Shown here in pieces: positions 33,958-34,162 of a stretch of 64,000 nucleotides of DNA. The translations under genes and the position numbers were made by a program. Below the pieces are notes generated by a model. The model worked only from the letters and a program-made list of their open reading frames with translations. It had not been told where the DNA came from and made no database searches. How positions within the stretch are numbered: the first letter of the stretch is position 1; each line of letters begins with the position of its first letter. Source of the DNA: Promethearchaeota archaeon (GTDB lineage Archaea > Asgardarchaeota > Lokiarchaeia > Sigyniarchaeales > SOKP01); contig JAHPZJ010000014.1 of assembly GCA_019058245.1 (NCBI GenBank), forward strand, positions 51,085-115,084, given 5' to 3'.

Positions 33958-34162
33958 TGGGCCATCGGGGATTTTCATGCTCAACCTAACCAATCGAGCC
34001 AATTTGAACCCCGGATTTCCTGTATAGAAGATAATCCCTCCTAAATCTCAGGTTTTTACTTTCTCGGACATCATTTTTTTGTGCGTCCGATGGTCATTTA
34101 TAAGACCTGCGCTTGTTGACCAAGCATACAAAACCTCGTTAACCAAGCTAAGCAAATGGCCC
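33958..34162 (-). tRNA. tRNA-Ile (UAU) with four introns
   Basis: Removing 34139-34115, 34097-34054, 34046-34017 and 34002-33972 gives a canonical 75-nt cloverleaf with anticodon loop CUUAUAA and discriminator A73. Confidence 0.85.

Follow-up and report, generated by a model that had tools for sequence, protein, structure and literature searches.

A tRNA gene interrupted by four introns, encoded on the minus strand of a Lokiarchaeal contig, is in all likelihood the AUA-reading tRNA-Ile(UAU) of this organism, where it replaces the pair formed by tRNA-Ile2(CAU) and TiaS. Reading AUA as isoleucine without misreading AUG relies on lysidine in bacteria, on agmatidine in archaea, and on inosine or pseudouridine in eukaryotes; the usual archaeal arrangement is a tRNA-Ile2(CAU) that carries agmatidine introduced by TiaS. 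The gene described here lies within the 64,000-nucleotide stretch that was analyzed (the window), which belongs to a genome assembly (G000) of 3.09 Mb in 31 contigs, with 29% G+C and a completeness of 76%. Its features, numbered along the window, are the following.

34184–34193 (minus strand): putative, likely archaeal TATA box TTTATAATAA, 22–31 nt upstream of G1, assigned from sequence
33958–34162 (minus strand): whole tRNA-Ile(UAU) gene, 205 nt, with G1 at 34162 and the discriminator A73 at 33958
34162–34156 with 33965–33959 (minus strand): acceptor helix, 7 bp, GGGCCAT with ATGGCCC, then A73 at 33958
34140–34162 (minus strand): exon 1, 23 nt, with the acceptor 5' strand, U8-U9, the D-stem 5' strand GCTT, and the D-loop AGCTTGGTTA
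34115–34139 (minus strand): intron 1 (D-loop), 25 nt, between the D-loop and the D-stem 3' strand, strict bulge-helix-bulge
34098–34114 (minus strand): exon 2, 17 nt, with the D-stem 3' strand AAGC, G26, the anticodon-stem 5' strand CAGGT, and the loop CTTATAA
34109–34105 with 34053–34049 (minus strand): anticodon stem, CAGGT with ACCTG
34104–34098 (minus strand): anticodon loop C32 T33 T34 A35 T36 A37 A38, with TAT at 34102–34100
34054–34097 (minus strand): intron 2 (anticodon loop), 44 nt, drawn in the 38/39 register
34092–34095 (minus strand): GACC, which can fold back on G29–C32 (34107–34104)
34064–34090 (minus strand): intron hairpin, 5' strand TCGGACG (34090–34084) and 3' strand TGTCCGA (34070–34064)
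34080–34082 (minus strand): ACA, on the 5' side of the apical loop, two bases past the helix
34056–34059 (minus strand): GTAA, intron strand of a 4-bp central helix with U33–U36 (34103–34100)
34047–34053 (minus strand): exon 3, 7 nt, with the anticodon-stem 3' strand ACCTG, A44, and G45
34017–34046 (minus strand): intron 3 (variable loop, 45/46), 30 nt, read by hand on the predicted fold
34003–34016 (minus strand): exon 4, 14 nt, with ATC, the T-stem 5' strand CGGGG, and TTCAAA
33972–34002 (minus strand): intron 4 (T-loop, 59/60), 31 nt, strict bulge-helix-bulge
33958–33971 (minus strand): exon 5, 14 nt, with T60, the T-stem 3' strand CCCCG, the acceptor 3' strand ATGGCCC, and A73

In silico removal of the four introns (25, 44, 30, and 31 nt) yielded a 75-nt perfect cloverleaf that ARAGORN assigned to tRNA-Ile(tat), a complete class-I tRNA with the anticodon UAU; CCA is not encoded. 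An earlier note on this DNA had placed the anticodon TAT at 34102–34100, in a loop CU-UAU-AA, within a tRNA-Ile2-like body with a GGGCC acceptor and A73, and the spliced cloverleaf bears out both the position and the body. The span to which that note drew attention, 34109–34054 on the minus strand, starts at C27 of the anticodon stem and ends with the final base of intron 2. The intron that it saw in the anticodon loop is present, but the gene holds four introns, not one. The interrupted gene is invisible to standard tools: ARAGORN found no tRNA at the locus in the unspliced window, with or without its intron mode, and a search of a 321-nt region against Rfam returned no family at the locus, either at the gathering threshold or at E values up to 10. 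Automated annotations will therefore wrongly report that there is no AUA decoder.

The introns differ in how closely their ends follow the bulge-helix-bulge motif. For intron 1, a motif scan found a central helix of four pairs (TGGT with GTCA), the bulges TA/A and AC/A, and outer helices of 3 and 4 pairs; in two orthologues (L019 and L020), a change of GTCA to GCCA converts a G-U pair into G-C. Intron 4 likewise has four central pairs (TTCA with TGAA), with outer helices of 5 bp, formed by the T-stem, and 2 pairs. The central helix of intron 3 pairs CCTG (positions 40–43) with CAGG, the bulges are AG/A and AA/A, and the outer helices are 1 bp each. Over 34017–34053 (minus strand), intron 3 thus borrows anticodon-stem positions 40–43 (CCUG). 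Because it occupies these positions, the anticodon stem and the splice site of intron 2 cannot form before intron 3 leaves, which implies an order of splicing, with intron 3 first, in those species that carry it.

Orthologues were sought with a 216-nt query against 40 relatives, which gave matches in most of the genus (24 genomes), and with covariance models (A1 and R1) built from the anticodon arm and its intron and searched across the class. The arm-plus-intron model matches 121 of 151 class genomes, nearly always with one copy per genome. The gene is single-copy in 116 of the 126 genomes of its own family (13 genera) and was matched in 4 of 13 of a second family. Conservation of the model across the class, together with compensatory changes in the stems, argues that the locus is not a chance resemblance. 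One genome, G010, contains two diverged UAU copies (G010:C359:660–871 and G010:C5:25022–25209, with 88% and 77% identity to the query), both of which retain the conserved anticodon intron; judged from their sequences, they could represent a true duplication or two strains mixed in the bin, which has 5% contamination. Outside the class, model R1 gave chance matches only, one of them an intron-bearing initiator tRNA-Met(CAU) and two that are not tRNAs. Locus L130 (G170:C101:1–400), in a TiaS-positive Asgard genome, is an initiator-type tRNA-Met(CAU) with A1-U72 and a GGG/CCC anticodon stem; the intron in its anticodon loop ends in AAUGA ... AGUAAAA, like the ends of the Lokiarchaeal tRNA-Ile(UAU) intron.

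Relatives that naturally lack the D-loop, variable-loop, or T-loop intron show the corresponding junctions and thereby fix the exon boundaries. These three introns are present or absent independently of one another among orthologues of the genus. L078, an orthologue in which the D-loop intron is missing, has the continuous sequence GCTT-AGTTTGGTTA-AAGC; intron 3 is absent in about half of the genus orthologues, where L009 and others read ACCTG-AGATC-CGGGG; and intron 4 is missing in many, leaving TTCAAAT uninterrupted. Six species (L011 and L016–L020) carry a fifth intron after D-loop position 16, which brings the intron positions of this one gene family to five within a single genus. Four of the five positions have been gained or lost within the genus, and the anticodon intron was kept in every orthologue detected. 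A pattern for an intron-less arm, searched in 161 genomes, gave two matches, neither of them a tRNA (a reversed control pattern gave about 14), and no genuine intron-less anticodon arm was found among these genomes.

The anticodon assignment depends on the splice register of intron 2, which was compared in 31 of 32 aligned, diverse copies, namely those with a locatable stem (about 12 genera, two families). In the window gene, the 37/38 register provides 1 of 4 central pairs. The 38/39 register pairs U33–U36 with GUAA at all four positions, with bulges AA/A and AA/A and the anticodon stem out of register. Owing to the run of A residues, both registers produce the same loop, CUUAUAA. The GTAA helix is paired in 20 of 20 sequences, one of its changes (G to A) keeping the pair, and is complete (4/4) in all type-B orthologues. 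This shifted 38/39 form occurs in the organism's own genus, in genus g22, and in several further genera of the family. The strict motif at 37/38, with 4/4 central pairs and a 5-bp stem, is seen in the more distant genus g12 and family f2, and genus g17 has 3/4 central pairs. Three of the shifted copies would have C or U at position 38 if cut at 37/38, and the 38/39 register restores A38. CUUAUAA is the sole anticodon loop that all 31 orthologues can produce, and the anticodon-stem pair 28-42 appears as A-U, G-C, U-A, and C-G among the 32 sequences. The shared loop and the covariation at 28-42 make the UAU anticodon secure.

Since intron 2 in the organism's own genus lacks the strict motif, its cleavage must rely on a relaxed substrate. 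Two EndA paralogues are encoded in the genome (ORFs of 201 and 202 aa that match PF01974); judged from sequence, two proteins of about 200 aa would fit a broad-specificity heterotetramer able to cut such a site. A genome-wide regular-expression search for anticodon arms returned only noise. The earlier note had also named a circumstance that would count against UAU, a mature CAU anticodon drawn from the CAT at 34092–34090. This triplet was examined and set aside, as it is variable in relatives, has C at the would-be position 33 in place of U33, and has no splice motif.

AUA is in heavy use in this genome. It accounts for 36.9 per 1000 codons (3.7%) and 34.5% of isoleucine codons in 1462 long ORFs, where it ranks as the eighth commonest codon, in keeping with the earlier remark that ATA codons are common in the window. 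The search for tiaS that the earlier note had advised found none in the genome, nor in the genus, the order, or the class, with positive controls. The TiaS_FLD domain (PF08489) was matched above the cut-off in none of 41 genomes of the order and in 0 of 161 genomes of the class Promethearchaeia (= Lokiarchaeia), including 40 high-quality ones (at least 90% complete); TiaS_TCKD (PF22641) was found in 0 of 53 genomes of the genus. A complete Asgard TiaS protein with TCKD, FLD, OB, and zinc-ribbon domains, used as query against the 76% complete genome G000, had no match at E values up to 10, and a weak TiaS_FLD match in that genome turned out to be aconitase. The FLD searches were positive in 4 of 4 archaeal controls and in 184 of 400 genomes of the phylum, which corresponds to 184 of 239 Asgard genomes outside the class; five Asgard families outside the class were negative. 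A tRNA-Ile(UAU) without TiaS is not a pan-Asgard trait; most Asgard families outside the class keep TiaS. Without TiaS, any tRNA-Ile2(CAU) in this lineage could not be agmatinylated. In four genomes of the class (G026:C79:19227–19409, G042:C38:16838–17008, G041, and G043), ORFs of about 385 aa match the TiaS TCKD domain above the Pfam cut-off, over its first 60 positions only and with no FLD domain; from their sequences, they may be a remnant of TiaS or an unrelated relative of the domain.

The wider tRNA complement was surveyed by two acceptor/T-arm searches combined with Rfam, which produced a census of about 31 genes that is itself incomplete. ARAGORN detected 6 intron-free tRNAs in the genome and the Rfam tRNA model 17–19, and so few intact genes imply that most tRNA genes of this organism are interrupted. 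The sole CAU tRNA gene in the incomplete census of about 31 genes (G000:C29:20062–20199, minus strand) has an elongator-Met-like acceptor stem; it is 138 nt long with about three inserts, and it shares an almost identical D-arm with the UAU gene. Neither tRNA-Ile(GAU) nor an initiator tRNA is present in this incomplete census of a 76% complete assembly. Elsewhere in the window, 31440–31591 (plus strand) holds a candidate tRNA-Sec whose anticodon loop reads CTTCAAA (UCA) and whose T-loop has a 30-nt insert; it is reported by neither ARAGORN nor Rfam and is located 37 nt upstream of a gene for a 455-aa SepSecS (31629–32996, PF05889, E 1e-110). A further tRNA missed by the finders, at 42456–42586 (plus strand), has a long, Ser-like variable arm and two inserts, one in the anticodon loop and one of 30 nt in the T-loop.

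The anticodon intron itself contains a structured element. Its hairpin is 100% paired in the genus, with 5 of 8 pairs changed on both sides and a score reached by 0 of 500 shuffles; across families, compensatory changes occur at all 7 pairs among the 32 sequences. The apical loop varies in sequence apart from an ACA triplet, which is unchanged throughout the orthologues (32 of 32) and lies 16–19 nt downstream of U34. The conserved intron and the invariant ACA in a covarying hairpin suggest an intron-dependent modification. A second structure is possible on the 5' side of the hairpin, where pairing of GACC with G29–C32 would exclude the anticodon stem and leave the anticodon in an 8-nt loop. 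This fold-back helix is part of the minimum-energy structure predicted for the full precursor, and a helix between positions 29–32 and GAYC, of 2–5 bp, can be drawn in all 32 orthologues, with a change from A28-U to G28-C between genera; its exon side is invariant, so that covariation cannot test it and the helix is weakly supported. Guide-RNA readings of the intron did not hold. An H/ACA guide should have a single-stranded ACA directly 3' of its lower stem, together with a pseudouridylation pocket and a K-turn or K-loop; here, the first ACA of GGACAUACA is wholly inside the covarying helix and the invariant ACA is in the apical loop; the window copy has GGACGCACA at the site of the first ACA, and the Rfam H/ACA match is at chance level only. 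A box C/D reading, from AUGA at the intron 5' end and CUGA in the exon, was discarded, as other genera have AGGC in place of AUGA.

A yeast-like role for the intron would add to the main explanation rather than compete with it. The anticodon intron might be kept because it is required for modification of U34, and perhaps U36, before splicing, a proposal that we regard as unlikely. The fold-back helix would stack on the 7–8-bp hairpin ending in N-ACA and so mimic the T-arm/acceptor minihelix ending in N-CCA; U33-U34 would be placed like U54-U55, letting Pus10 or guide-free Cbf5 act. The proposal draws on the presence of the anticodon intron in all detected orthologues (121 genomes), with no intron-less arm in 161, set beside four other positions that come and go within the genus, and on the persistence of ACA in an otherwise variable loop of a covarying hairpin. 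The dimensions are also similar: U34 and ACA are 16–19 nt apart, and U55 and C74 of a tRNA (standard numbering) are 18 nt apart; the two helices together measure 10–13 bp, compared with 12 in a tRNA; the spacing of U33 and A37 is like that of U54 and A58; and U33-U34 are the first two bases of the loop. The published UAU tRNAs of ARMAN and Korarchaeum have an anticodon intron as well (PMC3239211, PMC6000648). However, the fold-back helix is only 2–3 bp in the orthologues with the strict motif, it excludes the fold needed for splicing, and the ACA sits in an apical loop rather than at a free 3' end. Moreover, anticodon-adjacent introns are common in this genome anyway, and the intron could be conserved for the sake of splicing or for a role that it plays once excised. 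The geometry of fold-back helix plus hairpin is close, within one nucleotide, to that of the T-arm, acceptor, and N-CCA, a likeness that is suggestive only. The more specific idea that the retained intron is a built-in signal, so that U34 would be converted by Pus10 or guide-free Cbf5 ahead of splicing and the reading of AUG thereby prevented, appears less probable still. If true, archaea would have an equivalent, and perhaps the precursor, of the intron-dependent formation of Psi34 and Psi36 in eukaryotes. Genes of the TruA family (PF01416) occur in 38 of 41 relatives, one gene per genus relative as in other archaea; none was found in the 76% complete genome G000, and no extra Pus1-like TruA paralogue was seen in the genus relatives.

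Other readings of the locus fare much worse. An alternative register, in which the 5' cut falls after U33–A35, would give the loop CUUAAAA and the anticodon UAA; it is arithmetically possible, since the intron terminates 3' in a run of A residues, but registers yielding UAA have at most 2 central pairs and give unrelated, non-conserved loops in distant orthologues. Moreover, this tRNA is class I, leucine tRNAs are class II, and a regular class-II tRNA-Leu(UAA) is present at G000:C20:96523–96689. The UAA anticodon was rejected after the comparison of registers across orthologues, and we give it next to no weight. Hardly any credence attaches either to a decaying, non-functional tRNA gene, with AUA read by something missing from the incomplete assembly: the anticodon intron without a strict splice motif, the 76% completeness, and the failure of standard finders would fit decay, but the gene is single-copy and kept in 13 genera of the family with compensatory stem changes and an invariant anticodon loop, it splices in silico to a perfect cloverleaf, and none of the 161 genomes, which include 40 with a completeness of 90% or more, yielded a TiaS. 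Judged by its conservation, covariation, and cloverleaf, the gene is real and functional.

The preferred explanation, an AUA-reading tRNA-Ile(UAU), can be laid out as a series of predicted steps. The archaeal splicing endonuclease would cleave the 205-nt transcript at four sites of bulge-helix-bulge type, and its pieces would be re-ligated to give a 75-nt class-I tRNA with the loop CUUAUAA, A37, A38, and A73. IleRS would then charge this product with isoleucine. The tRNA carries A73, A37, A38, C4-G69, and U12-A23; these are isoleucine identity elements in E. coli, and the archaeal set is not established. U34, probably in some modified form, would pair with the A of AUA. The tRNA would thereby stand in for tRNA-Ile2(CAU) and TiaS, a pair apparently lost by the whole class. 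On this sequence evidence, the tRNA very probably reads the common AUA codon with its UAU anticodon. An engineered haloarchaeal tRNA-Ile with U34, which carries cnm5U, also binds and misreads AUG (PMC3895270), and a UAU reader therefore needs some safeguard.

Decoding of this kind has precedents. tRNA-Ile(UAU) is found in ARMAN-2, -4, and -5, in which TiaS and tRNA-Ile(CAU) are both absent; its 37/38 intron was cleaved in vitro, and the resemblance to eukaryotes was already pointed out by the authors (Fujishima et al. 2011, PMC3239211). The Lokiarchaeal gene resembles these in combining a UAU tRNA-Ile, no TiaS, and an anticodon-side intron for the archaeal splicing endonuclease. It differs in having four introns, with a relaxed 38/39 register in the genus, rather than one 25-nt intron with a strict 37/38 motif, in the conserved hairpin with ACA within its intron, and in belonging to the Asgard rather than the DPANN lineage. 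A tRNA-Ile3(UAU) in place of a missing tRNA-Ile2(CAU) is also known, without TiaS, from Nanoarchaeum equitans (PMC8450103, PMC3895270) and from Candidatus Korarchaeum cryptofilum, where the gene has an intron (PMC6000648, PMC3895270). Both share with the present case the use of UAU in place of CAU, and the Korarchaeum gene its intron; they are, however, described as isolated gains in single species, whereas the trait here is class-wide (TiaS in 0 of 161 genomes, the gene in 121 of 151). The earlier note had proposed a switch to, or a transition toward, the eukaryotic solution. A mature UAU anticodon and the absence of TiaS from the class indicate that the lineage has switched away from CAU and TiaS; given the ARMAN, Korarchaeum, and Nanoarchaeum precedents, the outcome is neither specifically eukaryote-like nor transitional.

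In yeast tRNA-Ile(UAU), Psi34 and Psi36 are formed by Pus1, only on the intron-containing precursor. Like its eukaryotic counterparts, the Lokiarchaeal tRNA has the UAU anticodon, an ever-present anticodon-adjacent intron, and an anticodon paired with the intron in the precursor. Unlike in eukaryotes, there is no dedicated Pus1 paralogue in the relatives (one TruA-family gene per genome), splicing proceeds via bulge-helix-bulge sites rather than by the ruler mechanism, and three further introns occupy positions that eukaryotes do not normally use. The intron dependence of Psi34 and Psi36 in eukaryotic tRNA-Ile(UAU) is attributed to Senger 1997 where that work is cited in PMC3895270. Multi-intron tRNA genes have been described in Asgard archaea as repeatedly gained, with many D-arm introns, mostly of the bulge-helix-bulge type, and as missed by standard annotators (Goswami et al. 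2026, bioRxiv 10.64898/2026.10.13.758758). The gene studied here is like those in having several introns and in escaping annotation, but that report centers on Jordiarchaeia and Atabeyarchaeia and does not mention Ile, UAU, or TiaS.

No published report was found of tRNA-Ile(UAU) in Asgard archaea, nor one linking TiaS or agmatidine to Asgard names. UAU decoding without TiaS is already known in a few archaea, and its occurrence in an Asgard class is unreported in the literature found. As far as sequence comparison goes, what extends beyond the known cases is the ever-present anticodon intron with its covarying hairpin and, in that hairpin, an ACA that never changes and keeps a fixed distance from U34. 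More generally, among the archaea closest to eukaryotes, an entire class has no detectable TiaS and uses an intron-bearing UAU tRNA. Cultured Lokiarchaea would thus offer a test system for how U34 avoids AUG and for whether the intron-dependent mechanism of eukaryotes may have archaeal roots.
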